This document shows, piece after piece, positions 1-58,939 of a DNA stretch of 64,000 bases. The translations under genes were made by a program, and so were the position numbers. The DNA comes from an uncultured virus (IMG/VR IMGVR_UViG_3300046534_001004) (lineage: Duplodnaviria > Heunggongvirae > Uroviricota > Caudoviricetes), in the IMG/VR virus record IMGVR_UViG_3300046534_001004. One strand, written 5' to 3'. Numbering within the stretch: position 1 is the first letter of the stretch; the number at the start of each line of letters is the position of its first letter. Below the pieces are notes generated by a model. That model ran no database searches, was not told the origin of the DNA, and saw nothing but the letters and a program-made list of their open reading frames with translations.

Positions 1-126
1 TCCAGCTCTGGGTACGCGAGAGCCTGTACCAAAAATACCACACCCTGCCCGTTGGTGGGGGCGGGTTGCATAAATGCCACAAAAGGGCAAGGCTTGCGCC
101 CTGCCCCTTGTGCCTTGCCCGTTGCC

Positions 127-525
127 TTACTTGCTAGGTGCCACCAACCAGCTTTGCGCCACGTTGCTAGCCCACGTGGGCATATTGTGCGCGGCCCAAC
201 CACCGCGCGGGGGTGCTATGCTGCTAGCCGCTGCACCCGCTACCAGCGCGGCGCGGTATGCTGCCAAGGTAAAGCCCTTGGGGTGCGCAGTGGTAAGCGT
301 ACGGGCAACGGCCTGTGCATAGCTGCGGTGTGTGCCACCGCGCACAGGTGGCATTGTGCCAGCTACAAAAAGCGGTGCCTGTGGCGCTGCCGCTTGTGCC
401 GCCTTAGTACCTGTGGCGGCTTTGGTGGTTGCAACTGTGGCGCTGCCCGTTGCTGCCGTTGCTTTTGGTGCGGTGCGCTTTGCTACGGTTGCTTTTGGTG
501 CGGTGTTTGTTTTGTTGGTAGCCAT
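127..525 (-). CDS. Small basic Ala/Thr/Lys-rich protein with no Asp or Glu; histone-H1-like TAPKA repeats at the N-terminus
   Basis: 132-aa ORF with ATG start and AAAGGGG RBS-like leader; lies wholly inside the GA/TC-free segment. Confidence 0.75.
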   Translation of the reverse strand: MATNKTNTAPKATVAKRTAPKATAATGSATVATTKAATGTKAAQAAAPQAPLFVAGTMPPVRGGTHRSYAQAVARTLTTAHPKGFTLAAYRAALVAGAAASSIAPPRGGWAAHNMPTWASNVAQSWLVAPSK

Positions 526-637
526 TGTTAAACCCCTTTAAGGTTTGGCGGGCAGTTGCGCCCTAGGCCGTGTGCGTTATTGCTTGGCCTTGCATACACC
601 TTACATATGCGGCCCGCATAAGCCAAGTAAAAACGGA

Positions 638-718
638 GCAACATTATTGCGTTGTTTACCCTGTTGGCGCAACATTAATACGCGCAACATTGTTACCCGT
701 TTGCGCAACATTATTGCG
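638..718. repeat. Four direct repeats of GCAACATT(A/G)(T/A)T upstream of the 127..525 gene
   Basis: Copies at 638, 669, 684 and 705. Confidence 0.85.
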
Positions 719-872
719 GGACCGTGTGGAGACCGAGACCGAGAGAAAGAGAGACGGTTGGAGAGATGGAGATTCCGATGGACGGACTCGGCGAAAACGA
801 CGGACTCGCCGAAAAGAGGAGGAGGATGAAGAATGTATAAGAAGAAAAAGAAGAAGAAATCTAAATAGAGAC

Positions 873-897
873 GCCGAATCAGACTAGCTGACTCGGC
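873..897 (-). terminator. Repeated hairpin CCGAGTCAG-CTAGT-CTGATTCGG followed on the minus strand by a long TC-rich tract (copy 1)
   Basis: Pairs with a G-U on the minus strand; same hairpin at 1305-1327, degenerate copy at 1947-1969; each follows a minus-strand stop codon. Confidence 0.55.
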
Positions 898-911
898 GAA
901 AATCTTTCGTA

Positions 912-1975: not shown

Positions 1976-2644
1976 TTAATCTTCGCTGTCTTCATCGGGA
2001 AGCCCAAGAGGAGCAGGAGTTATGTCTGTCGCCGCTCCAAATCTTGTCTCCCAGTCATCGATGCTCGCTGTTTCAGCTGGAGCAACTAGAACTCCACCAG
2101 TGTGGCTCACCGCGATCTCTTGTTTGTCACGGTATCCCTTGTCGTGCTTCTTGAGTTCCAGTTCGATGAGGCGGATAGGATAGATCGTCTCTTTGCCGAC
2201 CAGTCCACCGTTCCTGTCGTACGTCTCTTTAATCGTACCATTGAAGAGGAGGTTCTGGTGATGCCCAATCAGTTTGTCTTTATACTCTTCTTCCTGCATG
2301 TAGAAAGCCTCGGCGAATTCTTCATCTTCTTCCATGTGTCGGCGAACTGTGAGAGTCGATACTCCGGCGGCTGCTGCGCTCTCTCCCATCCGTCCCCATT
2401 TCGCATACTCTAGCAAGAACACTTCTTTCGCCTTCTCATCAAACTTGGTGCGGGACATACGGATCGCTGTTCGCCACTCGCCTGTGACTTGATCTTGAAC
2501 GTCGTACTTGACGACCTTGGATCCTCGGCTGACGAGGGAGCGTGGGCGACGTCTCATCGCAAAGCTCTCGTCGTACTTCTGAGCGTAGTCTGTTTCGTCG
2601 TTGTCTTGATTATCATTGTTCATCTTGTTCATCTTGTTCCTCAC
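1976..2644 (-). CDS. Probable terminase small subunit
   Basis: HTH-like KEVFLLEYAKWGRMGESAAAAGVSTLTVRRH and C-terminal LELKKHDKGYRDKQEIAVSHTGG typical of TerS-like proteins. Confidence 0.6.
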   Translation of the reverse strand: MRNKMNKMNNDNQDNDETDYAQKYDESFAMRRRPRSLVSRGSKVVKYDVQDQVTGEWRTAIRMSRTKFDEKAKEVFLLEYAKWGRMGESAAAAGVSTLTVRRHMEEDEEFAEAFYMQEEEYKDKLIGHHQNLLFNGTIKETYDRNGGLVGKETIYPIRLIELELKKHDKGYRDKQEIAVSHTGGVLVAPAETASIDDWETRFGAATDITPAPLGLPDEDSED

Positions 2645-22513: not shown

Positions 22514-24588
22514 TATTTAATGCTTCCCCAGTTTGGTCCAGTTTCTGTGTCTACTTTGAATGGTACGAGAGGTCTGCACCGTTTCAACACACAATCCCTC
22601 ATTATGTCACCGACAGCAACAGCTTCTGCAACTGATCCGTAGCTACCGTCGGTCTCATCGTGAACCTGTAGTTGTAGATAGGCGTCAGTCTTGTCAATCT
22701 CTACCAAGGCAAGTTTAGTTTGATCTGCAGAGGAACCTTGAATAACTCTGTTCAAGGCTTTGTGAGTGTAGTCGTAGGAACCATCGTCTCGTTGTTCAAA
22801 ATGAAGGTGCCTGTTAAATATCGTCTTGACGAAGCCCTTGGCTTCAGCCCTCGCTGACGCAGCTTTAGCCAATGCTCCAACAAAAGGGGCTTCCCTATCG
22901 AACTTATCCAATATCTCTTGTCCCTCTTCACCTGCCATCTCCTTATAATAACCCGTTCCCATATCCATGCGAGCTGACATCGCATCTTCTTTGCTATCGT
23001 GGTATTCAATGCGGCGTTTTTTACCCCATCCTGAGATATGCGCCCAACGAGTAGGTTTGCCGATGTCCATGCAGAGTTTAGCTCCTCCTTCTCCGTAGCA
23101 TAACCCAAGGTAAATAGCCTTAGAGAACCCTCGCTCTAGTTTGAATTGCTTTGGGCTTTGTGACATCCATTTATCGACAATGCTATCACCGTTAACGATA
23201 CGAGTCATCATCTCGTGGTTGTCTGTGCTTGGGTCTTCACGATAACGCTTTGCTGCATCTCTTGCTTTTGGGAAATCCATAAGCGCCGCAAAATGTGTCG
23301 TCCATCTGGGTTCTTGCTGGGAATAGTCATTACAACCCCAAATCGCTCCTTCTTCTGGTATGAAAATCTTCCTCCATTCTCCAGCGATTACAGGGTCTCG
23401 ATCAGGGCTTGGTTGCTGTTGCAAGTTAGGATCGATCGCTGACAATCTACCATACCGAACTCCTTTTTGCTCACCGTTTTCTGTTTCGGCTGCAATCTGC
23501 TTAAACGAACAGTGGATTTTACCTTTCACAGCATACCTACGAATGGATGCAGCGAAAGTTGTCCTGATCTTATTTACTTTGCGGGCATGAAGGATAGCGT
23601 TAGGGACAGGGTGGTCTGAACCTCCGAGCAGAGCTTTATCAATCTGTGGTGCTCCGGTCGTAGTTTTATTGAGACGCATACCAATATCTTCAAGAGCAGG
23701 AGCGATGAGGTTTGGTTTCCAGATGTTGTCCAACCCAATAGAAATACCTGTCTCTCTTTTGACAAGGTCTAACGCTTTCTTCTCTTCATCTAAGGCCCAT
23801 TTCTCAATGGACTCTAGTTTTTCAAAATCAATCCGTACACCACGACGTCGCATTCTTACGAGTACGGGGAGAACGTCTGTCTCAAGGTCCCATATCTCAC
23901 GCAATCCCGCCGCCTCAATCTTCTTTTCTTGCATTCGTAGGATCTCAAGTGGTGAGGTAACATCTTGCTCACCATACGCTCCGACGAAACGGGCGGGTAA
24001 GCGCCATAGCCCTTTCTTTGCGTCAAGTCCGTGGGCTTTCGCAGCTTCAATAAGCAGAGTCTCATCTTTAGCATCGATGCCGTGACGTTTGCCAATGTTA
24101 GCGAGAGAATATGACCACTCAAGTTCATTGATGAGAGGATCTGCGATTTGCACGTCTCTGAATTTAGCATCTCGATGCCATTCAAATCCGTCGTTGTATC
24201 CGTAGTCCACGTCGTATGCCAGATTTGCTCCAACGAATTCCCCTCGGTAATTTTTGATGTTATCTCTAAGGTATCGAAGGACTTCTGTTTCGTCCAGGTT
24301 ATCACCGCCTTCATGTCGGAAAGGGAGATAATGTTTAGGTCCTCCATCAATAGCAAAGGCCCAGCCCACAGTATAACCGTCTCGCATCTGTCCGGTTCCC
24401 AGTCCAGCACTGATTGATGGGTCTCTTGTTTCAGCATCAATAGCTATCCTTTTTGCACCAGCCCAAGAAGGAAGGTCAGAAATGGAAGGAGGTCTCCAGT
24501 CTGCCTTGGGCATAAACATTGACATCTGCAGCGGGGACTCTCCGCTATTCCTAGCTTTGGCTTCTTGTTGTTTAGTCTGTTTTGCCAT
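22513..24588 (-). CDS. Family A DNA polymerase with 3'-5' exonuclease domain
   Basis: IAIDAET, GRLS..DPNLQQQP, DYSQQEPR, K..YLGLCYG, IQGSSADQTK, LQVHDE. Confidence 0.95.
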   Translation of the reverse strand: MAKQTKQQEAKARNSGESPLQMSMFMPKADWRPPSISDLPSWAGAKRIAIDAETRDPSISAGLGTGQMRDGYTVGWAFAIDGGPKHYLPFRHEGGDNLDETEVLRYLRDNIKNYRGEFVGANLAYDVDYGYNDGFEWHRDAKFRDVQIADPLINELEWSYSLANIGKRHGIDAKDETLLIEAAKAHGLDAKKGLWRLPARFVGAYGEQDVTSPLEILRMQEKKIEAAGLREIWDLETDVLPVLVRMRRRGVRIDFEKLESIEKWALDEEKKALDLVKRETGISIGLDNIWKPNLIAPALEDIGMRLNKTTTGAPQIDKALLGGSDHPVPNAILHARKVNKIRTTFAASIRRYAVKGKIHCSFKQIAAETENGEQKGVRYGRLSAIDPNLQQQPSPDRDPVIAGEWRKIFIPEEGAIWGCNDYSQQEPRWTTHFAALMDFPKARDAAKRYREDPSTDNHEMMTRIVNGDSIVDKWMSQSPKQFKLERGFSKAIYLGLCYGEGGAKLCMDIGKPTRWAHISGWGKKRRIEYHDSKEDAMSARMDMGTGYYKEMAGEEGQEILDKFDREAPFVGALAKAASARAEAKGFVKTIFNRHLHFEQRDDGSYDYTHKALNRVIQGSSADQTKLALVEIDKTDAYLQLQVHDETDGSYGSVAEAVAVGDIMRDCVLKRCRPLVPFKVDTETGPNWGSIK

Positions 24589-25169
24589 TAAAGATCACCT
24601 GGACAATAACCAAATAGGAACGGATGGTTAATACCGACGTCTGAGGACGTGCCAGATGCGGTGGGTTGGGTAGTGGTGCCACCAGCACGTCCGCTACCCC
24701 CTGTTTTTTGCCGCTGGGTGGCTGTTAGCGGTGCAAGGGGGCCAAGGGTGCTACCAGCATCTAACCTGCTCTGTACGGCGTCCATATGTGCACTGATTAA
24801 GCCAATCAAAACACTGAGGTCAGTATCTGTTCTCCATTGAGCAATACTTAGGCAGAGTTCGGCTTCTACATCTGGTACTTTTGCACTGTTCACGAAATCA
24901 CAATACATTTCTTCAGCTTTGTCACAAGAGTTTTTGTAAGAATCAACATGAAGACATGTGTTAAGCCATCGACCATTCACATATCCTTCCTTAGCTTTGA
25001 TCAAATAAGACCGAGCCTTATCTAAGTCTTCAAGGCCATTTTTCTTGTACCAGCGAAAAGCATACTTAGAAGCCGCTGCCTCGAAATAACCGAGGTTGAC
25101 GTCCATCGCCCAATCCCAGTGCTGATAAGCTGCGGCGTAGTGATTTCCACCTACTTGTGTAGAGTCCAT
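24588..25169 (-). CDS. DUF3310 (T7 gp1.7-like nucleotide kinase family) protein with low-complexity C-terminal extension
   Basis: QVGGNHY...KYAFRWYKKNGLEDLDKARSYL. Confidence 0.75.
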   Translation of the reverse strand: MDSTQVGGNHYAAAYQHWDWAMDVNLGYFEAAASKYAFRWYKKNGLEDLDKARSYLIKAKEGYVNGRWLNTCLHVDSYKNSCDKAEEMYCDFVNSAKVPDVEAELCLSIAQWRTDTDLSVLIGLISAHMDAVQSRLDAGSTLGPLAPLTATQRQKTGGSGRAGGTTTQPTASGTSSDVGINHPFLFGYCPGDL

Positions 25170-25170
25170 C

Positions 25171-25722
25171 TTAAGCTCCTTCCATATCTGGCATTGAAAA
25201 CCAGTTATCTTCTTTGATCAAGTAAAATGCGTTCACAACTTCAACAGCATACAAGTGAGAGCTCTTCAGTATTGACTCTTCAACTCGTTTCAGCTTAGGA
25301 GAAATTGCCATGTTACCAGACATAACCTCATCTTTGAGATAGCAGTAGTATTCCAGCGTATCTAAGCCTTTGAACCACTTGTAATCTTCATCACTTAGAG
25401 AAACTTCTTCATGAGAACCAAACATCTCTACATTGATTTGGAGTTCAGTGTCTTCTTGAGCGGCGTTGTGCTGGATACCTCTTTTCTTCGCTGGGCTTGG
25501 CATGTCGCCTGTGATGCGCTCTGCAAGGTCGTGCTTGATGCAAGCTAGAATAAGATCACGGGAAGCTTTCGGGTGAAGGATCAACAACATAGTAACCATG
25601 TTGAAGCTGTGAAGCCCAACAGAGTCACAGATATTACCAGAGCTTGAATGTGATCTCACGACGTTAGCTGCTTCCCGAGCAAACTTAATTCGCTTGACGT
25701 TGTCTGAGAAATAGTAATCCAT
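25171..25722 (-). CDS. HD-domain 5'-deoxynucleotidase-like protein
   Basis: V.R.H, SVGLHS, HDLAERITGDMPSP.K, D.LE. Confidence 0.8.
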   Translation of the reverse strand: MDYYFSDNVKRIKFAREAANVVRSHSSSGNICDSVGLHSFNMVTMLLILHPKASRDLILACIKHDLAERITGDMPSPAKKRGIQHNAAQEDTELQINVEMFGSHEEVSLSDEDYKWFKGLDTLEYYCYLKDEVMSGNMAISPKLKRVEESILKSSHLYAVEVVNAFYLIKEDNWFSMPDMEGA

Positions 25723-26750
25723 TATGCCCTCCGCCCCAGCCACTCGATACAAGCCTTCTGCCAATCAGTAGCGGCGATGTTCTCCGCTGATGCGATTGCC
25801 ATTTCAATACGATCAGGATTGCTTTTATCTTTCCACTTCTCCCACGATAGCATCATAGGAACTGCAACTCGCTTGAAGAATGGATCAGTGTAGCCCATCA
25901 CATTTGCCCCATCATCCATGAACATAGATAGTTCACTGAACCATGTATCAATAGGAGAGTTAACAATGTTGAATGGTTTCACGTTATCGAGCTCGTAATC
26001 AGTGAACCCAGCAGACTGAGACAACAAAGGCTCTACTTTTTTCAGTGTTTCGAGATAGGCGTGGAAGTTGGTGCTGATCTGCCAGTAACGCCCAACAGGA
26101 ACACCAATCCAAGAAGCCATAACTTCTTGCATGAACGACATGTGAACAGCGTTGGCCCCATAGGCTCCCCAGATCATATCGTTACTGCGATTGAACACAG
26201 TCATATCAAGATGACCAGCCACGTTGATACGAAACGTGATGATCAAGTTGCAGGGAAAGTCTTTGCCATCAAGACCAAGATCTGCGTGAGCATCCCACAT
26301 TTGCAGAACAGTGCGACGGTCGTCAGGGTTTTTCTTGAGAAGATCAGCGATGGTAGATAGTTGATCCAAAACACCAATTTCTCTGCTGATACCATCAGGC
26401 ATTTGTTCGTATTCCGCAAAATGGTTCCGCCAGCGATAACCGTAGGCTCCATGGAAGTTGACTCCATCGTCAGTATAGTTAGCCATGCCATTGTTGAAGC
26501 GACTGATCCATTCAACGTCGCGACGACCCGCCATCATCCAGAGGCATTCCATGAAGTGGAAGAACGGATTGCAGTCACGTTCAGGAAGGAACATAACTCT
26601 TTCTCTTGGGCGTTCATAGACAGTTGTCACTGGCTCGGGCATCACTTTCACTGGGCCATTACGGCTGTCTCGCTGAACACCAGTTTCATTGATCATATCA
26701 ACGCCCAACAGAAGGGCCTCTTCTACGTTTCTCGCTCTAACAATATGCAT
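25722..26750 (-). CDS. Thymidylate-synthase-family dUMP hydroxymethylase
   Basis: GAYGYRWR, DFPCN, NRSNDMIWGAYGANAVH (Asn at the dUMP/dCMP specificity position), NFHAY; next to 5-hmdU kinase. Confidence 0.85.
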   Translation of the reverse strand: MHIVRARNVEEALLLGVDMINETGVQRDSRNGPVKVMPEPVTTVYERPRERVMFLPERDCNPFFHFMECLWMMAGRRDVEWISRFNNGMANYTDDGVNFHGAYGYRWRNHFAEYEQMPDGISREIGVLDQLSTIADLLKKNPDDRRTVLQMWDAHADLGLDGKDFPCNLIITFRINVAGHLDMTVFNRSNDMIWGAYGANAVHMSFMQEVMASWIGVPVGRYWQISTNFHAYLETLKKVEPLLSQSAGFTDYELDNVKPFNIVNSPIDTWFSELSMFMDDGANVMGYTDPFFKRVAVPMMLSWEKWKDKSNPDRIEMAIASAENIAATDWQKACIEWLGRRA

Positions 26751-28021
26751 TATAGTAGTACTCCAAAGTGGTTAAACAGTTGATCTTCAACTTTTGTTTT
26801 CATTGCTTGCGTCGCAGTTCCCTGGACTGCTTCTGTCTCGCAATTCCCATTTGCAAGATCGATCACACGTTGAGCCACCGTTTTCCGTTCAAACAATGGC
26901 AGAAGTTCTTGGTTCGCCTCTATCATAGGTTGGGCTGTCTTGATAGATTGGTTTCCAGTTTCCAGAACGATTTCAGCATACTCTTGGGCATCAGCATTTT
27001 CTGGAATGGCGATGTAGTGTTCACCAGCTTGGAACAACTCAGAACCCATGCCTTTTTGACGAGCGACAACCACGCAGCCTCGAATCATCGCATCTACAAC
27101 TACGCGGTTAAAGTGACCGCCAACCTTAGAATAATTGTTTGACCAGGATGGATCAACAAGCACTCGAGATTCACCGAGATAATTGTCAACTTCAGTTTTG
27201 TCCCAGTAATCATGGTGGGTCATACCATTGTCGACAGCGGAGTCCCAGAACTTTGTTCCATTATCGTGGAAATAAGCGTCTTTGCACTTTTCCTCGCTGG
27301 TCATGTAGCGATACTCGATGCCCAAGCCAGCGACTTCACGCATCTCATCCGCTTCTTTGCTGGGCATATAGCGGATAGCTTCAACTAGCTCATGAGCATG
27401 TTTCCACGCTTTGAAAGTTTGCATGTTTACAAAACCACGAGATTTCCAATCCCATCTAGCATAAGGACGAACAGGATTTTCTTGTGGGTTTAAGATCAAT
27501 GCTCGTGGGACGTCCGCAAAGGCTGCACCGTTGAGGGCGCAAGGATGAACACAGGCAAGGCCAGAAAGTTTATCCTGAATAGCCAGCAGATGTCCTGCCC
27601 CTTTCACTGCGTTACCGTCGTGAACAAACGCAATTTGTTTGGTGGTAGATGGAAGATCATACAATTCAGGCCAGTCATCGTTACCTAGATTGTCTTGGTT
27701 TTTGCTTGGAACAGGCATGGTCCAGATGATGAGGTCATACCCACTAAGAATTTGTTTCGCACCACTAAGGTGAGCTCCACCGCGATAAGGGATGCGATTT
27801 GTTTTTGAAAAGTTCCAGCCTTTACCTTGATGATGAGGGATACCGCTTGGTCCGAAAGACCAGTCTGCAGTTTTGCGTTGGTCTGGTGCTTGGAACGACC
27901 ATACGAGTTCTTTAAGCTGAACTGTGTGACCTAGTTCTTTAAGACCACCAATCAATTGTTCGGTGTGATCGATAATACCACCGAGGTCCATGCACTTGTG
28001 AAGTGCGACTAATATCTTCAT
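26750..28021 (-). CDS. GT-B fold glycosyltransferase
   Basis: N-terminal MKIL...GGIIDH..QL..GLKELGH.V; FVHD; C-terminal VDPS...HFNRVVVDAMIRGCVVVA; GGAG RBS. Confidence 0.7.
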   Translation of the reverse strand: MKILVALHKCMDLGGIIDHTEQLIGGLKELGHTVQLKELVWSFQAPDQRKTADWSFGPSGIPHHQGKGWNFSKTNRIPYRGGAHLSGAKQILSGYDLIIWTMPVPSKNQDNLGNDDWPELYDLPSTTKQIAFVHDGNAVKGAGHLLAIQDKLSGLACVHPCALNGAAFADVPRALILNPQENPVRPYARWDWKSRGFVNMQTFKAWKHAHELVEAIRYMPSKEADEMREVAGLGIEYRYMTSEEKCKDAYFHDNGTKFWDSAVDNGMTHHDYWDKTEVDNYLGESRVLVDPSWSNNYSKVGGHFNRVVVDAMIRGCVVVARQKGMGSELFQAGEHYIAIPENADAQEYAEIVLETGNQSIKTAQPMIEANQELLPLFERKTVAQRVIDLANGNCETEAVQGTATQAMKTKVEDQLFNHFGVLL

Positions 28022-28076
28022 TTGGGTTGTCTCCAACAGGTTATGTTTAACCACCATAGCGGCAGAGGGCGCAAAA

Positions 28077-28093
28077 GACAAGTGCTAGTTGTC
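28077..28093 (-). promoter_or_regulatory. GACAA-N7-TTGTC operator/promoter upstream of the glycosyltransferase operon
   Basis: Minus strand GACAACTAGCACTTGTC; TTGTCT-17-TATGGT. Confidence 0.7.
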
Positions 28094-28106
28094 GCCCTCT
28101 TCCAGA

Positions 28107-29012
28107 TTATTTAGGTGCTTTGTACCGAGACCTTGGTCGTCCTTGGCCCAAACGGACACGCTCATACTTGTCAAACTCACAAAGTTGGAACTGCACATCG
28201 TGAAGGCACATCTCGATATCTGGAATGAATTTGTCACGCTCAAACCATAGCTTCCAGATAACAGAGAACGCTTGATCTTCTTTCAGAGGTTTAGCAGTTT
28301 CGTCCCCGAGTGCACGAGCCGCACCACGTCTTGCTCCTGGACCAATAGGCGTCCAATCATTCCAGTCAGTTGGGAAAGAGAAACTTCCGTCGGGACCACC
28401 AACATCAGGTTCATTCCAGAAATTAGTGTAAGTAGTATCTAGTAAGATCTCTTTGGTCATGAAGCCAGAGCCACCGAAGCCATTGATCTTCCGCATCTCA
28501 GTGGCAACTTTCTCCCAGCTTTGAGTTTCCTTAGCTATCTGGCACAGGAAAACAGTTTTCTTTTGAAGAGCCTTGAGGAAATAATCAACTACTACTTCTT
28601 GTTTTGGAGCAGAGATACCTTGGTTCGTGATAACATAGGCACCGGTGAAGACTCGCTGTTTGTTTGCTAGCCGGTCTTGAGCAAGTTCTTTGACTTTATC
28701 CCAATGACCTTCGTGCATATCATCGAAGTTTGTCCACCCTACACACTCTGCAAATTCGTATGTTCCAAAATAACGGAACGTCGCAGCATTCATAAGAATA
28801 GTTGCAGGATCAGCATCGAATTTGGAAGTGTAGAACAACCCACGGAGGACGTTGCTGGTTCGGTCATGATGTCTATGAACATTGGTGAATTTGTAATCCC
28901 TCAAGATCTGGTCTTCAGTCCAGGGAAATGGCAAATCCGCCAGCTTTCGCAGGCGGATCTGTTCGCGTTCCTCAACAAAGCTGAAGAACGCTTGTGTCTG
29001 AAATTCAGACAT
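28107..29012 (-). CDS. 5-hmdU DNA kinase, helical type (aGPT-Pplase1 family)
   Basis: EEREQIRLRK...PWTEDQILRDYKFTNVHRHHDRTS; FTGAY; GFMTKEILLD; IGPGARRG; QFQLCEFDKYERV. Confidence 0.85.
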   Translation of the reverse strand: MSEFQTQAFFSFVEEREQIRLRKLADLPFPWTEDQILRDYKFTNVHRHHDRTSNVLRGLFYTSKFDADPATILMNAATFRYFGTYEFAECVGWTNFDDMHEGHWDKVKELAQDRLANKQRVFTGAYVITNQGISAPKQEVVVDYFLKALQKKTVFLCQIAKETQSWEKVATEMRKINGFGGSGFMTKEILLDTTYTNFWNEPDVGGPDGSFSFPTDWNDWTPIGPGARRGAARALGDETAKPLKEDQAFSVIWKLWFERDKFIPDIEMCLHDVQFQLCEFDKYERVRLGQGRPRSRYKAPK

Positions 29013-29734
29013 TATTCAGCAGCAGCTTTCGCAGCTTCTTTTTCAGCTTTCGCATCAGCCTTGGCTTTGACAGCAGCTTCACGCTCGGCGATTTTCGCAA
29101 GTTTCGCAGCTTCGCGTTCTGTTTTCTTGACAGCAGCAGCTTCGTCACGCTCAACTTTCGCTTTTGCTCGTTCGGCAGCAGCTTCAGTTTTCGCCGATTC
29201 AGGATCAGTCAGACCGTGCTTCGTATACCAAGCCGCTTTGCGAGCAATGAACTCTTCCGCAGTTGGTTCGGTGATGGTCATGATGCCTTGTCCAGTCCAG
29301 CTATAGACGTCCCACGGCTCTGTGCCTTCTTTTTCAATGACGTCGACAATAGTCATGCCATCAGTGTAGTTCGGCCAGCGATGCGTCCGCCCCTGAGTGC
29401 CGTCGTGTTCGCCAGTTTTGGTGATGGTTGAAAACATTTTCTGGTTCGGACGTTTGACCGTCTTCGCCTCAGCCGATTTGGCCAGACCGCGCTCTTTGGG
29501 TTCAGCTTTGACTTTCGGCTTTGTTTCTTTCACTTTCGGTGCTTCAGAAGCTTTGTTGTGGCGCAGGAGCGCTTTCCAAGTCTGAGCAGCACCAGCGGCT
29601 TGATCTTTGAAACCTTTGACTTCTGCCACGTTGAGGCTCACAGCCACTTCATTGCGCAGTACCAAAAGGTCTTCAATTGACAGTTGAGCCAAGTCTGCCT
29701 CGGCGTATTCTGTCTCGTTAAAGGTAATGTTCAT
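29012..29734 (-). CDS. Hypothetical protein with Ala/Lys/Glu-rich C-terminus
   Basis: GGAG RBS; start at MNITF. Confidence 0.75.
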   Translation of the reverse strand: MNITFNETEYAEADLAQLSIEDLLVLRNEVAVSLNVAEVKGFKDQAAGAAQTWKALLRHNKASEAPKVKETKPKVKAEPKERGLAKSAEAKTVKRPNQKMFSTITKTGEHDGTQGRTHRWPNYTDGMTIVDVIEKEGTEPWDVYSWTGQGIMTITEPTAEEFIARKAAWYTKHGLTDPESAKTEAAAERAKAKVERDEAAAVKKTEREAAKLAKIAEREAAVKAKADAKAEKEAAKAAAE

Positions 29735-29849
29735 ATCATTTCTCCATTTATCTGATATCAAAAGTTGCCTCAGTTTGGGCATAGTTAAACCTAACTTATT
29801 CCCATATCCGAGGCAACCCTTAATTGTCCAGTAAAGACAAATAGTTTAG

Positions 29850-38180: not shown

Positions 38181-38283
38181 AACTTAGACCTCTGCGGACG
38201 TGTTGGTGTAAAGGCAACGCGCCACAACCCAACCAGCGCCACCAAAACACCGCCCGTTGCGGGCTTGTTTACCTGTTTTGGTG

Positions 38284-38571
38284 TTATGCCCCACCATTAC
38301 CATCAGGCCCCTCTACGGTGTCTTCTACCACTCCACACTTAGTGTCGTTTATTTGGGTTACAGTAGAAGACGTGAAATAGCTTACGATAATAGTCGTACA
38401 CATACCGAACAATGAGCCCAAGAGGAAAGATAGTTTCTCGACACGTTCTGCTGCTGCGTCTTGGGTTGTGCCATAGATCAGCATCCATCCTCCAACGACA
38501 AGCATGAACCAGAAAGAAATCCATGCCATGCGTCGGCGATTATTGAAACGTATGTCAGATTTGATTGCCAC
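38284..38571 (-). CDS. Putative holin (2 TM)
   Basis: NRRRMAW, two TM helices, adjacent to spanins. Confidence 0.6.
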   Translation of the reverse strand: MAIKSDIRFNNRRRMAWISFWFMLVVGGWMLIYGTTQDAAAERVEKLSFLLGSLFGMCTTIIVSYFTSSTVTQINDTKCGVVEDTVEGPDGNGGA

Positions 38572-44133: not shown

Positions 44134-47100
44134 TATCTTCTTCTTTCGGCAGTTGTGTTTTCGGAGAAAGCTGATGAGATTTGACTGTTAGAGTCAACTA
44201 GCTGACCAGCTACAATTTCTGGAGTTCTCTCTGTTACTTTTTTCTCAGCTTCTTCTCCAGCTATAATCCTTATCTCACCTTCACTTATCTGCTCAACTTT
44301 AACATTTTGTCCTGTATAGTTATGAACAGATACTTTCATTCCACCGGAGGTCACATTTGGTTTATCGCTACTGGACCCAGAGGCGAAAGAAGGTAGAAGT
44401 CTGGATACATCCATACCTGAGTTTATAGCTTTTAGCAACGGAAGATTTTTAGAGGTTGCATCAGCGTTCACAACGAATTCTCTGTTAGAAAGCCAAGCTG
44501 GTATCTTATCTTCTTTCGGGCCTCCAGGTCCTGTGATTAATCCACCTTCTGCAAATCCTCCAGCAGCGGCAAGACCAGTGCTAAGAGCTACAGTTGAGGC
44601 GATTGCAGCAGCGGCGGGAGCAGCGTTTGTTCCCAGAGTCGCTAGAGAAGCTAGAGCAGCGGCAGGAGCCCAAGCAGCGGCAGTCGTGGCGGCAGTCGCT
44701 ACAGAAGCAGCCGTTGCTGCGGCAGCAATTGTCTGCCCAAGAGCTGCGTTCAGCAATGCCTGAATCCCCATCTCTACTAATCCTGAGATCAATGAAGCCA
44801 GTGCATTCTGAGCCACACTTTTCAAAGCCTGACCGAGGTTCTCTGAGAAGACAATAGCTTTACCTACACTATCCGCGAATCCTGTTGTGAGGGAACCAAA
44901 GAAGTCAGAGAATACTTCACCACTAGAAGCAGCAAATGTTCTCACTGCTTCTGTCATTTTTGATATACCCAAAAGGAAACCATCAGCGAAAGATCCATCT
45001 CCTGATTGTGTTACAGTTTCTAGGATAGTTTGATTCAAAGAGGCTAGAGAAACATTGAACGCATCTTGAGATATTCTTCCTGTATCAAGTACGAGATACA
45101 AAGCCTCTAGACTTGTTGTGTAACTATCTAGTGGACCTTTGATTTCTTCGTATATGGAGGCAGACTCTTTCGCAACTTCAAGACTTCTCATAGTAGCAGA
45201 AGCTAAACTAATCTCTTGTTCAGTCAAACTCCTTTTCAGTTCTTCTTCTATTTTCAAGATACCTTGAGCAATTTCTCTCTCTTGACTTGTTAATTTAAGA
45301 AGGTCGAGTTCTTTGTTCATTCCAGAGAGGATATTAGCAAAGTTTTTCTCTATTTCCCCGCCGCCTCCAGCATCTTTATCCGCAGCGTCTCTTCTCGCTC
45401 CAGCGAGTATAGTCTGATAGTTTCTTTCCGCTTCGGCTAGTTGATCAGTACTCGCTCCAGCAGCCATTAAAGCAGCTCTGTGAGTTTCATAGCCTTGAGT
45501 AGCTTGAGCTAAAGTTCTATCGAGACCTGTGAGACTAGCTAAATTAGCTTGGTTGCCATATCTGTCTACTTGATTGTTCAGCCTTTCTAAAGCGTTAGCA
45601 GCATCTTCAGCGTTATCCACAGCTACATCGTTTGTAAGTCTGCTGACTGTTGAGTTATACGCCGCTTCTGCTATGGCTAGATCTCCTAAGCTAGCTCCCG
45701 CACTGACCAAAGTAGATCTTAACGCTTCATATTTTTCAGTTTCCCGAGTTATGGCTTTATCTAAACCAGTTCTAGAGGCTACGTTTGCTTGAGAGACATA
45801 TCTATCTAGTTCTGCGGTAGCATCACGAGTTGCTTCTGCTGAACCATCAATTTCACTAACAGCTTGGCGGTAAAGATCATTAAGATTAGCTTGACGATTT
45901 ATTAGTTCATCAACTGAAATCCCATTGTTATTAAATTGAGAATCTAAATCAGCCATTCCAGATGCCAACTGAGCAGAAGCTTCTTGAAGACCTCCTGCTA
46001 TCTTACTAGCAGCAAGCATAGATGGGATTTTACCAATGAAGAATTCTATCGCTCCAGCAGCGGCACCCGCAGAACTAGAGACAGCATCAAGACCTCCAGC
46101 CATTACTAGAAGAGCAGTCTCAGCTGCCGTTGCTGTTCCATTTAATTCTGCTATAACAGCATCTAAAATTTCAACTTGATCATTTGCTAAATCAACTGAT
46201 TCTATAGAGTCTACTAATCCACGAACAAATTTTGTGAATCTAGTATTATCAACTTCTGAAGCAAGAGAAGCTATTCTATCACTAAATTGAAAAATATCTA
46301 TGCTTCCAGCTTCTAACTCATCTCTAATAGTAACTAATTGATTTATGGCTCTACTAAAATCAAAATCTGCAGTTAGTATAGTTTTAGCATCAGTCCAAAG
46401 AGAGTTGTAACCAATCAACTGATCAGAGACTGCTGCGAGGGCGTTTCTTTGGGCTTCCAGAGCTTCTACTCTTTGAAGTTGAAGTTGGGCTATAGAAATT
46501 CTGTCAAATGTGTCAGCTAGCTCAACCCCTTGATCTTTAGCATCAACCATCGCTGCTCCGACTTGTCTCATCAAATCAGAGGTTTTATCTACTACGACGT
46601 TGACTTCTGCAGAAGCGTCACGAAGATTTGAAAGAGCGAAAACCGCAGATGTAATTGCTATAGCGATAAGACCGATAGGACCCAAAGCTGCTATCAGCCC
46701 ACCTATAGCTCTACCTAGACCAACAACCATTGCGGTTAAAGTTGGAAAAACCCTTGTAAGCGTTGCCGCAACAGTACCAGCCGCCGCTTGTGCCGCTGTT
46801 AGGCGCACGTTAGCCGCTGCCAATGCGTTGGTGGCCCCTGTTTGGGTTGTACGCACTGTGGCAAGCGTTCCAGTAAGTCCTATTTCTGCTTTTTCTACAA
46901 TTGAAAGCTGTGCTGTCACTCTAGCAAGATTAGCTTTTGCTGCTGTCAGGTTAACGAACTGTCCAGTAGCCGCCGTCCGAGCTTTTCCGTTAGCTACTGT
47001 GAACTGAGTATCTAGAACTGTCTGTTGAAGTTGAGTTTTTTGAACAGCTATGAGAGCCAAATTTTGACGAAGTTCTGTTTCTCTTAAAGCGATACCATAT

Positions 47101-57406: not shown

Positions 57407-58939
57407 TCAATGAGCGCCTGTCGTTGTTCCAGAACTTCCGGTTTGCCCAACAGAGCGGATAAAATAGCGAACCTCGTCAGCGACGTGGTCTTCTGCATCA
57501 GTGTTTATGTCGTCTGGGTTCTTTTCATCACGAGGGAGCACTGGTAAAGTCTCAATAAAAGCTGTGCAGTTAGTAAAAACGAATAAAGCTGGCTTCTCCC
57601 GAGGGAAAATAGCGATAACTTCACCTTTTTCATCTTTCTTCACGTTGGGTCCAGCGTTTCTGATACGCTGTCTCAGCTGAGACCAACCTGTAACACGAGA
57701 TCCAGGACGTTTATCGGCTGCGTTCCACATAATTCCAGGATAAATGTTCCCATCATCCAATCTTACTTTGGCTTTCATGTCCGTGGCGATACAATTTCCG
57801 TTTTCAGCCGCAAATATCTGCGAATCAGCAACACCTGCTTTGACGCGACACCAAGTTGTTCCTCTTTCTCTCCAACCACATTCCATTTCTTTCTTAACGA
57901 TACCTTCGGAGATCTCTGATGCCAGAATATTAAGCCCTTCGTTCGGACGGTTGTCGTGGCATCCATACCATTCTCGAATACGAAATACATCTCCCCGAAT
58001 GGTGCTTCGCCAATTTCCATCCCGTAGCTGTACGTCTTCTCCATTGCTGATTGCCCACCAGCCCACAGAGAAAGGCTTGCTCGCACCCCAGTCAAAGCTC
58101 CTAGTGATCTTCCAGTTATATGGAATATCAAACGGTAAGACAACATTGTACTTAGGATCCCATACATCGTCAAACATTCCTCCAGACACGATATCCCATG
58201 AACCATCTAACCAAGCCTTCTTCTGGGCTTCGTTATCAGCCGATGCAGCAATCTTCTGTTTGTATTCTGGATCTGCTTCAAGTAGTATGAGGTTCTCATC
58301 AATGTGTGATTTTATGCTGAGACGTGGAGGTTCTTTCTCACCATCTTCATCCATAATGTCACGACGAACTATCATGTTTAGGCTCTGCGGTTTGAAACGG
58401 TTCTTTACCCAATTATGACCAGGACCCGAGGGGTTCGTGGTTGCCCGACACATGCGTGGCATACCCTTCACAGAGGAACGGCAGGTAGACATCATTTTCT
58501 TGTAGCCTTTGGCGTTAGGCCAGTTACAGAGTTCTTCCCAGCCAATCCATGGATATTCGTGACCGTGATAGTTATCATAGTCATTTTCTTTTGCGAATTG
58601 TCGCAGAAGAAGCTGCTCACCAGTGGGCCAAGTCCACGTATGTTCGGAGTGGTTGAATTTCGCAGTAGGCCAAATCTGCGGTATCCATTTTTTTGTCTTC
58701 GAGATAACGTCGGTCAATTGCTTGTAGGTCTGACGAAACAGAATTCCTTTCCACCCAGCACCATGTCCTTTACCAACGTGCATACAATAAGACATGAGGA
58801 GAGAATCAGTTTTCCCACCTCCACGTGTCCCCTCAAACAATACCTCAAAGACAGGGGTTGAAGACAAGAACGCTTCTTGCGATCCAGGCATAGGTCTCCA
58901 GACTACATTCTTTGGATATGATTTCGTTTCAGTTTGCAT
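57407..58939 (-). CDS. terL: Terminase large subunit
   Basis: P.PGSQ, EGTRGGGKT, IGWEEL, TTNPSGPGH.WVK, SFDWG, EDHVADE.RY. Confidence 0.93.
   Translation of the reverse strand: MQTETKSYPKNVVWRPMPGSQEAFLSSTPVFEVLFEGTRGGGKTDSLLMSYCMHVGKGHGAGWKGILFRQTYKQLTDVISKTKKWIPQIWPTAKFNHSEHTWTWPTGEQLLLRQFAKENDYDNYHGHEYPWIGWEELCNWPNAKGYKKMMSTCRSSVKGMPRMCRATTNPSGPGHNWVKNRFKPQSLNMIVRRDIMDEDGEKEPPRLSIKSHIDENLILLEADPEYKQKIAASADNEAQKKAWLDGSWDIVSGGMFDDVWDPKYNVVLPFDIPYNWKITRSFDWGASKPFSVGWWAISNGEDVQLRDGNWRSTIRGDVFRIREWYGCHDNRPNEGLNILASEISEGIVKKEMECGWRERGTTWCRVKAGVADSQIFAAENGNCIATDMKAKVRLDDGNIYPGIMWNAADKRPGSRVTGWSQLRQRIRNAGPNVKKDEKGEVIAIFPREKPALFVFTNCTAFIETLPVLPRDEKNPDDINTDAEDHVADEVRYFIRSVGQTGSSGTTTGAH

Follow-up and report, generated by a model that had tools for sequence, protein, structure and literature searches.

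A bounded stretch without GA or TC around an acid-free protein gene in an uncultured siphovirus that carries thymine-modification genes

The window analysed here, a stretch of 64,000 nucleotides from an uncultured tailed virus (Caudoviricetes; IMG/VR record IMGVR_UViG_3300046534_001004), begins next to an island of 616 bp from which the dinucleotides GA and TC are absent. The island encloses a gene for a 132-aa protein without Asp or Glu. The purge acts on the DNA itself, it has been conserved in relatives, and the same genome carries genes for the modification of thymine. In the leading reading, TpC would be the context in which thymine is modified and exemption from that modification would be what has been selected. 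We tentatively propose, at somewhat short of an even chance, that the unit is kept free of thymidine hypermodification in the TpC context.

A purge of GA and TC at the level of DNA

Steps of GA or TC begin at window positions 1, 7, 18, 20, 636 and 720 and are dense thereafter, which leaves gaps of exactly 616 bp (20 to 636) and 84 bp (636 to 720), as a sequence-only reading of this DNA had stated. That reading had also called both dinucleotides plentiful elsewhere, and indeed the window holds 8,952 such steps, or 0.140 per position, with next longest gaps of 124, 106, 81 and 70 bp. At a frequency of 0.14, the probability of a gap of at least 616 bp is 4e-41. From its own base composition, segment 21..720 should contain 84.4 GA and TC, against 1 observed, and 21..636 contains 0. 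The longest GA/TC gap was 2.9–13 times the rough expected maximum in each of six related genomes, while none of the remaining nine dinucleotide classes showed a gap above about 2.3 times that maximum in the same six. The elements of the island region are as follows.

21..636, either strand: core GA/TC-free island, the 616-bp gap; GC about 60% versus 45% in the rest of the window.
637..720, either strand: second GA/TC-free stretch of 84 bp with four direct repeats that are candidates for operators or protein-binding sites.
127..525, minus strand: gene for the 132-aa protein without Asp or Glu; residues 1-49 form a disordered basic tail of Ala, Thr, Lys and Pro, residues 50-132 a conserved C-terminal domain.
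533..539, minus strand: AAAGGGG, resembling a ribosome-binding site (RBS) and a putative GA-free stand-in for GGAG, as read from the sequence.
598..626, minus strand: weak candidate sigma-70-type promoter, found by eye, with TTGGCT at 621-626, a 17-nt spacer and TAAGGT at 598-603.
636-645, 667-676, 682-691 and 703-712, minus strand: four copies of the direct repeat AATGTTGC(G/T)C, candidate operator repeats.
82..123, either strand: inverted repeat AAAGGGCAAGGC / GCCTTGCCCGTT directly 3′ of the stop codon, a terminator-like hairpin without a T run.
721..901, either strand: flank with an extreme GA density on the plus strand, which makes the coding strand rich in TC; from 701 on, 200 bp contain 46 GA/TC.

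An assembly artefact was ruled out, since the stretch was recovered in contigs from four runs of four studies and in contigs of many samples. The island sequence occurs in 8 sequencing runs, all of them represented by assembled contigs of ice or marine metagenomes, and no RNA run was among those listed. Four of these runs have unitigs that span it continuously at ordinary depth, with strain variants, although contigs cannot show DNA ends. A search of deposited phages with the island DNA, the island protein and two acidic homologues returned no match.

The gene contains no codon with GA or TC, and all 7 of its Ser codons are AGC. When synonymous codons were resampled according to the codon usage of the genome, 27.9 ± 4.0 GA/TC were expected, with a minimum of 14 in 20,000 resamplings, whereas the gene has 0. 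Permutation of the gene's own codons still predicted 9.6 ± 2.4, with P(0)=5e-5, which means that the codon junctions G|A and T|C have been purged too. Neither the protein nor codon usage is thus what the constraint acts on; it acts on the DNA. The sequence-only reading had claimed this, naming a codon-shuffled null as the check, and both nulls bear it out. It had also described a protein free of Asp and Glu with Ser encoded only by AGY, which the codon table confirms, the AAAGGGG in place of GGAG, which is found at 533..539, and the inclusion of both gene flanks. The GA/TC-free DNA reaches 106 nt 3′ of the stop codon and 111 nt 5′ of the start codon, plus 84 nt beyond a single GA, and the flanks of relatives agree. 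With GAN, TCN, NTC and NGA codons barred, together with the junctions G|A and T|C, the protein is left without Asp or Glu, residues that make up 6.7% and 6.6% of the phage's other proteins. Selection has removed TpC, which is GpA on the opposite strand, from both strands.

A compositional artefact or a mutation bias, in which an Ala/Thr/Pro-rich acid-free protein or a replication process eroding TC would leave such a gap, is extremely improbable. The proteins of this family do contain 25% Ala and 12% Thr, and the smaller GA/TC-free patches in coding DNA described below are Ala-rich linkers. The permutation of own codons, with similar outcomes in relatives, already takes composition into account, however, the non-coding flanks are purged as well, and acidic homologues of the domain exist. 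Mutation bias was ruled out because synonymous four-fold sites in the bulk of the genome favour the dinucleotides, with observed-to-expected ratios (o/e) of 1.27–1.58 for T before C and 1.20–1.81 for G before A. Outside the island, TC/GA are abundant in the genome (o/e 1.14–1.16), and none of the TC/GA-containing 3- and 4-mers is markedly depleted in the bulk (lowest about 0.70–0.75). Since intergenic DNA of this genome has an o/e of 0.96–0.97, versus 1.15–1.16 in coding DNA, a general purge of control DNA was rejected. A Cys-rich plus-strand open reading frame (ORF) overlapping the gene in antisense (52-531) was rejected too, because relatives differ at the third positions of the minus-strand frame.

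The island may be a self-contained small unit consisting of repeats, a weak sigma-70-like promoter, a GA-free RBS, the 132-aa gene and a hairpin. It is possibly moron-like, given its GC content of about 60% versus 45%, with promoter and hairpin seen by eye; the consensus promoter scan did not call TTGGCT-17-TAAGGT, nor did the terminator scan call the inverted repeat at 82..123. The promoter spacer contains a GC-rich palindrome. TTGGCT is also present 5′ of the homologue in the distant relative G008, where it follows four GTAACA..TGTTAC-like repeats. The palindromic operator GYAACA-N3-TGTTRC, prompted by that upstream region, had 0 matches in the window, and we therefore describe only direct repeats here. 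These direct repeats are AATGTTGCGC repeats; the window holds 7 matches with at most one mismatch, of which 4 lie in the 637..720 array, as do all three exact copies. Upstream of the array, in gene orientation, is a coding-strand TC tract (860-721), and a hairpin CGCCGA...TCGGCG at 872-898 closes the preceding small gene. An Rfam search returned a single chance-level row (E=0.31).

Conservation of the gene, its purge and its protein family

The island gene is real and under selection. Among nine complete IMG/VR genes, the ratio of nonsynonymous to synonymous substitution rates (dN/dS) was 0.06–0.3 between closer relatives and up to 0.8 against the most divergent, L017. The genes of the window and of relative L006 differ at 6, 8 and 55 first, second and third codon positions, respectively, with third positions dominating (dS about 0.8), and both contain 0 GA/TC. 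Counts of GA/TC were made in 11 complete homologues, a twelfth (L014) being cut by a contig end and left out. Own-codon permutation predicts 8–15 GA/TC over these genes, with P<=0.004 in 9 of the 11. Five have none at all (the window, L006, L016, L017 and L057), among them the most divergent, L017 and L057. Four are leaky, namely L056 with 2, L008 with 4, L009 with 5 and L004 with 6, against 11–13 expected. The purge has been retained although synonymous sites are near saturation among the homologues. Where leaks occur in relatives, the numbers of GA and TC are similar, which fits a reader of double-stranded DNA. In the strict lineages, the free span always comprises the ORF and 77–188 nt downstream, while its upstream extent ranges from 8 to about 200 nt. 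In L017, the GA/TC-free island of 622 bp also spans a second acid-free ORF (1983-2168, 61 aa) with a hydrophobic stretch, suggesting a membrane peptide.

That the span common to the strict lineages is the transcribed part, the ORF with its 3′ flank, and that the Shine-Dalgarno-like GGAG is replaced by AAAGGGG, would also be expected if the constraint lay on RNA, with GA and UC excluded from the transcript, for instance as a protection from an endoribonuclease. We consider this highly doubtful. The purge runs through the repeat array at 637-720, upstream of the candidate promoter, and similar upstream depletion was found in L008, L009 and L056. Moreover, two unrelated dinucleotides equally avoided on one strand amount to one dinucleotide read on both DNA strands, and the intergenic GA/TC-free patches include non-coding DNA.

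Homologues of the protein fall into 75 protein clusters with 55–100% identity, of which 41 lack Asp and Glu; overall, Asp accounts for 0.2% and Glu for 0.6% of residues. A full profile search yielded 49 representatives, and the 44 new ones tabulated comprise 41 short and 3 long proteins. The short distant representatives are split into acid-free and acidic forms, 22 having no Asp or Glu, 3 having 1–2% and 16 having 3–15%, which indicates that the acid-free state is imposed by the DNA and not by the fold. The acidic small homologues sit on short contigs. One long representative, P0078, was rejected as spurious, having matched via low-complexity repeats. Two others, P0082 and P0092, are AAA_5 proteins with the domain between the Walker A and Walker B regions. 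For three proteins of this kind, hmmsearch gave E-values of 4e-25 to 3e-18. Apart from the G007 protein described next, the domain occurs in two long AAA_5 proteins and in two fragments. In a 903-aa AAA_5 protein of IMG/VR contig G007, residues 584-666 align with the family over 83 columns at 53% identity (hhalign probability 99.7%, E=1e-25), and the gene that follows the one for this McrB-like protein encodes McrC (PF10117, E=1.2e-73). By these sequence comparisons, the domain of the phage protein is homologous to an insertion in McrB-like AAA_5 NTPases; its presence inside a McrB-like restriction ATPase is newly found here. The G007 copy has ordinary acidic residues and an ordinary GA/TC density, and neither a kinase nor an island was found on G007. 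This McrBC-type system (L058 8423-12450) lies on a ‘viral’ contig of 64% GC, with long unannotated ORFs on both strands nearby; in its 903-aa protein, too, the insertion separates the Walker A from the Walker B region.

An AlphaFold model built from a 34-row alignment had a mean predicted local distance difference test score (pLDDT) of 74.7 overall; residues 50-130 reached about 90, and residues 1-33 stayed below 50. Foldseek found nothing in the PDB at E<=0.001. When residues 55-132 were compared with 48,161 chains by VIA-align, Z-scores were 4–6, inside the tool's stated background range, and most of the 50 rows listed were winged-helix proteins: JetA (6.0), MukF (5.2), the APC2/cullin WHB domain (5.2 for APC2), CENP-B (5.1), ORC/Cdc6 (4.5–4.9), MCM and H1.8 (4.2). 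Based on the model, the C-terminal domain is probably, if tentatively, winged-helix-like. The basic Ala/Lys/Pro tail and the N-terminus predicted to be disordered likewise resemble linker-histone and winged-helix proteins. No family in Pfam, PHROGs or PADLOC matches the 132-aa protein, and the ESM Atlas gave no usable match. A search with the family profile among 487 six-frame ORFs of the window revealed no paralogue besides 127..525 (next E=0.66).

Thymine-modification genes and what the island may be exempt from

Matches to Pfam and PHROG families identify the phage as a siphovirus, with tape measure, tail tube, capsid, a portal-region domain and the large terminase subunit TerL. Its replication genes, recognised in the same way, include PolA, a primase-helicase, a ribonucleotide reductase and a ligase. 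A near-identical contig that runs past base 1 of the window gives a circular map of 64,878 bp, of which the window lacks 878 bp; the paralogue search covered the window. In one neighbourhood lie genes for a dCMP deaminase (PF00383, E=3.4e-19), an HD hydrolase, a thymidylate-synthase-family enzyme, a GT1 glycosyltransferase, a 5-hydroxymethyldeoxyuridine (5-hmdU) DNA kinase and a 256-aa protein.

28107..29012, minus strand: 5-hmdU DNA kinase, candidate reader of the dinucleotide context; PF18723 HMUDK_hel, E=1.1e-34, residues 6-288 of 301.
26750..28081, minus strand: GT1-family glycosyltransferase of the modification cluster (25171-29782); PF00534, E=1.7e-6; kept in 5 of 5 relatives.
25722..26750, minus strand: thymidylate-synthase-family enzyme, presumed dUMP hydroxymethylase; PF00303, E=1.3e-22; phrog_5131, E=8e-126.
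1976..2644, minus strand: small terminase subunit terS; phrog_4044, E=3.4e-22; the island lies between terS and terL.
57407-58939: TerL; PF03237.

These matches sustain the earlier claim that the phage has a kinase, a glycosyltransferase and genes of the 5-hydroxymethyluracil (5-hmU) synthesis type. The hydroxymethylase activity is presumed, as the sequence of a thymidylate-synthase-family enzyme alone does not separate hydroxymethylases from methylases. The kinase is 23–28% identical to those of Epa5, PaMx11, Ab18, PhiJL001 and others (287 records). As in PaMx11 and PhiJL001, a PF18723 kinase, a thymidylate-synthase-family enzyme, a dCMP deaminase and an HD hydrolase share one neighbourhood. 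Unlike M6, ViI, PhiW-14, PaMx11 and SH-Ab 15599, this phage has no recognised transferase of the aGPT-Pplase type, for which neither Pfam nor PHROG gave a match; the GT1 glycosyltransferase and the 256-aa protein flank the kinase instead. Comparison of the island family with this 256-aa gene, which heads the kinase, gave an hhalign probability of 0.2%. All six large island-bearing records (85–100% complete) encode the 5-hmdU DNA kinase, and the glycosyltransferase and the neighbouring 256-aa gene were present in all five relatives searched (G002-G006). Otherwise full-length homologues of the glycosyltransferase in G005 (C1:45469-46800) and G006 (C1:39776-41068) contain one in-frame stop, TAG or TGA, and the homologue of the 256-aa gene in G006 (C1:37902-38606) likewise contains one; sequencing error, a split gene or recoding could explain these stops.

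A dinucleotide that is read on both strands, favoured in the bulk and forbidden in patches, in genomes that all carry the kinase cluster, fits a context-specific modification of thymine. The idea that T in a TC context is the target had been put forward in the sequence-only reading, and it is plausible. In this scheme, 5-hmU would replace T during replication, and the kinase, the glycosyltransferase or the two together would then act on 5-hmU in TpC within the DNA. The island would be a stretch whose sequence exempts it from TpC hypermodification; our guess is that the gene has to stay accessible to reading and binding, and safe from cutting, irrespective of how the remaining genome is modified. 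Published restriction panels are consistent with such context dependence, as one report places T hypermodification of M6, ViI and PhiW-14 in TG and TC (PMC6449724), and another places it mainly in TG and less in TC for SH-Ab 15599 (PMC13458397).

Several observations weigh against TpC-context modification. The kinase-phage contexts in these reports are TG or TG plus TC and none is TC only, in contrast to the TC proposed here (PMC6449724, PMC13458397). TG is not avoided in the island, where its o/e is 1.52 and its share of the bases after T is 0.46, against a share of 0.42 predicted from barring C after T. Dinucleotide-free islands were found in 0 of 5 deposited kinase phages (PaMx11, PhiJL001, of which the first 50 kb were scanned, SH-Ab 15599, Epa5 and Simon). 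In the TG-modified SH-Ab 15599 there is no TG-free stretch, the longest being 43 bp versus about 66 expected, a comparison that we rate as uninformative. The homologues of L005 and L007 have 11 GA/TC each, not far below an expectation of 15 (P=0.065 and 0.02, respectively), and these relatives have kept the kinase and the glycosyltransferase. No island-bearing relative without the kinase, which could serve as a negative control, was found among the six large records, nor one without the glycosyltransferase among the five searched; scans of IMG/VR with three of the acidic small homologues, and with their alignment, yielded no usable record either. Control genomes show a similar bulk preference for TC/GA junctions (1.0–1.46), so this preference only weakly supports a benefit of TC. 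Finally, the tape-measure gene, in which a smaller patch is conserved (see below), has no obvious need to stay unmodified.

An activity that reads TC/GA but is unrelated to the phage's own modification, and against which the gene is kept untargetable, is in our view unlikely but deserves consideration; the sequence-only reading had named avoidance of a host defence as its alternative. Candidates would presumably be a TpC-specific host nuclease or deaminase, ADP-ribosylation of thymidine in TC motifs or a CRISPR system whose protospacer adjacent motif contains TC (TTC). The purge affects both strands alike and acts at the level of DNA; its leakiness and its variation between lineages, from 0 to 11 GA/TC per gene, would follow from differing host defences. 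In addition, the absence of islands from the five deposited phages means that the kinase alone does not predict them. On the other hand, TC/GA are abundant outside the island and are even preferred at synonymous junctions. A defence reading bare TC/GA would destroy such a genome unless TC in the bulk were modified, which leads back to TpC-context modification. A reader of a longer motif would not need every TC removed, and no longer TC/GA word, TTC/GAA being one example, is specifically avoided in the bulk. In G006 and G008, GTAC is absent from the whole contigs (0 sites) and CTAG is at 0.40–0.54 of expectation; the absence of GTAC is classic restriction-site avoidance, unrelated to GA/TC.

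The position of the island raises the possibility of a packaging-recognition region, pac or cos-proximal, that is bound or cut by terminase and therefore unmodified, with the gene merely lying inside it; we regard this as quite improbable. The island is located between terS and terL, about 1.4 kb downstream of terS, it adjoins four clustered direct repeats, and a gene for an HNH endonuclease lies between it and terL on the circular map. The record begins 20 nt away from the edge of the island, and of the contigs one begins within it and another terminates within the gene. Of the four contig or record ends no more than about 550 nt from the gene, however, no two share an offset: one precedes the ATG by about 544 nt and another by 68 nt, a third falls within the gene, and the fourth is 126 nt beyond the stop codon. 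This speaks against a fixed terminus of the genome there. Other contigs run straight through it, and the unitigs of the four runs, which are contigs only, show ordinary depth. The part that is always free in the strict lineages is the coding region with 77–188 nt downstream, not the repeat array, and, to our knowledge, 600–700 bp is far beyond what known terminase sites need. The suggestion in the sequence-only reading that terminase acts on the island thus found no support and is opposed by the four offsets, and nothing here supports its suggestion that host RNA polymerase reads the island first.

The interval between terS and terL spans about 7 kb on the circular map and holds the island, small genes, the HNH endonuclease gene and a gene for a 765-aa fibre-like protein, while in relatives the distance from island to terL is only about 2.5 kb (L010 8645-12666). 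Three copies of a modular intergenic unit (841-901, 1272-1332 and 1914-1974), each following a small minus-strand gene, consist of a GA-rich plus-strand tract, a hairpin CGCCGA..TCGGCG and AAAA, and look like insulators that combine a terminator with a TC tract. In the unitigs, alternative segments replace stretches of 57–770 bp by small genes adjoining the island (L010 6500-10500, corresponding to window position about 2145 to 1 and beyond), which is strain-level mosaicism.

A narrower proposal, improbable in our estimation, combines hypermodification with the homology to McrB: the island would be a restriction-proof minigene for an anti-type-IV-restriction protein. Hosts would attack this clade through modification-dependent systems, one of which, McrBC-like, carries the same domain in McrB, and the stand-alone phage copy might act as a decoy or poison subunit. 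In DNA without modifiable TpC, a modification-dependent nuclease would neither recognise nor cut the unit of promoter, gene and terminator, and expression from the incoming DNA would be assured. The price would be a protein without Asp, Glu and TCN-encoded Ser, and nowhere in the genome would decoration be heavier than in the neighbouring TC-dense tracts. According to a preprint, Pseudomonas phages with T hypermodification come under attack from host nucleases at an early stage of infection, and phage inhibitors counter these nucleases (PMC12191111). Together with the homology to the McrB insertion, these data suggest the anti-type-IV reading of the gene. Unlike the insertion in McrB of McrBC, the phage protein stands alone, is acid-free and has a basic tail.

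Smaller patches, known systems and significance

Smaller GA/TC-free patches are conserved too, for example in the tape-measure gene, and are newly seen here. Patches of at least 75 bp recur at homologous places, including GC-rich intergenic DNA with hairpins.

46745..46869, minus strand: GA/TC-free patch of 124 bp in the tape-measure gene; homologous place in 7 of 7 genomes.
38197..38303, either strand: intergenic GA/TC-free patch of 106 bp with a terminator-like hairpin; homologous 107-bp patch in G003.
24690..24760, minus strand: GA/TC-free patch of 70 bp in the low-complexity linker of gene 24588-25169; 91 bp in G003, 142 bp in G006 and 122 bp in G008.

The tape-measure patches measure 96–170 bp in the seven genomes. 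Under the codon-usage null, P(0) was at most 0.0015 in each of six genomes tested, and under own-codon permutation it was 0.001–0.23 per genome. The gene with the linker patch lies upstream of PolA, and the patch recurs in the window, G003, G006 and G008. An identical 14-mer (GCCGCTTGTGCCGC, plus strand), encoding AAQAA in both places, is shared by the island gene (389-402) and the tape-measure patch (46782-46795), which may be chance.

The purged DNA is also rich in G+C, with segment 21..720 at 58% versus 45% elsewhere in the window. The island and the patches are poor in A·T pairs, their GC content being raised by 15 to 20 points; fewer T means that every kind of T modification is lowered there. 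Within the clade, 100-bp windows at least 15 points above the mean GC content have a GA/TC o/e of 0.29–0.49, and 29–62% of them hold at most two such dinucleotides. Windows with so few are absent from every GC bin of G007, PaMx11, PhiJL001 and SH-Ab 15599, where the top occupied bin has an o/e of 0.87–1.34; PaMx11 and PhiJL001 lack windows at least 15 points above their mean.

A literature search yielded no published report of genome stretches purged of a modification context. Phages are known to avoid restriction sites and other words, for example when the first-entering DNA lacks sites for host enzymes; selection then removes the word and synonymous choices bear the cost. In the island, by contrast, the avoided word is as short as a dinucleotide, and its removal from a bounded stretch of 0.6–0.7 kb is complete and alters the amino-acid alphabet of the protein, while elsewhere in the genome the dinucleotide is favoured. 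Vertebrate CpG islands are likewise bounded, differ from the bulk in their modification state and coincide with gene control regions. Their target dinucleotide is retained and protection acts in trans, whereas the phage island would delete the target itself and hard-wire the exemption.

If TpC is the decorated context, these phages would set by sequence alone which parts of their DNA are modified and which are spared, so forcefully that one protein has to do without two of the amino acids. The purged dinucleotide would then offer a sequence-only readout of the modification context in uncultured phages, and the island would serve as a built-in control, naturally unmodified within a genome that is otherwise modified. 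The homology to the McrB insertion hints at a contact, so far unexplored, of hypermodifying phages with type IV restriction. Should the link to modification prove wrong, the conservation of 0.6 kb from which a dinucleotide is barred still implies that infected cells contain a so far unknown activity that reads dinucleotides.

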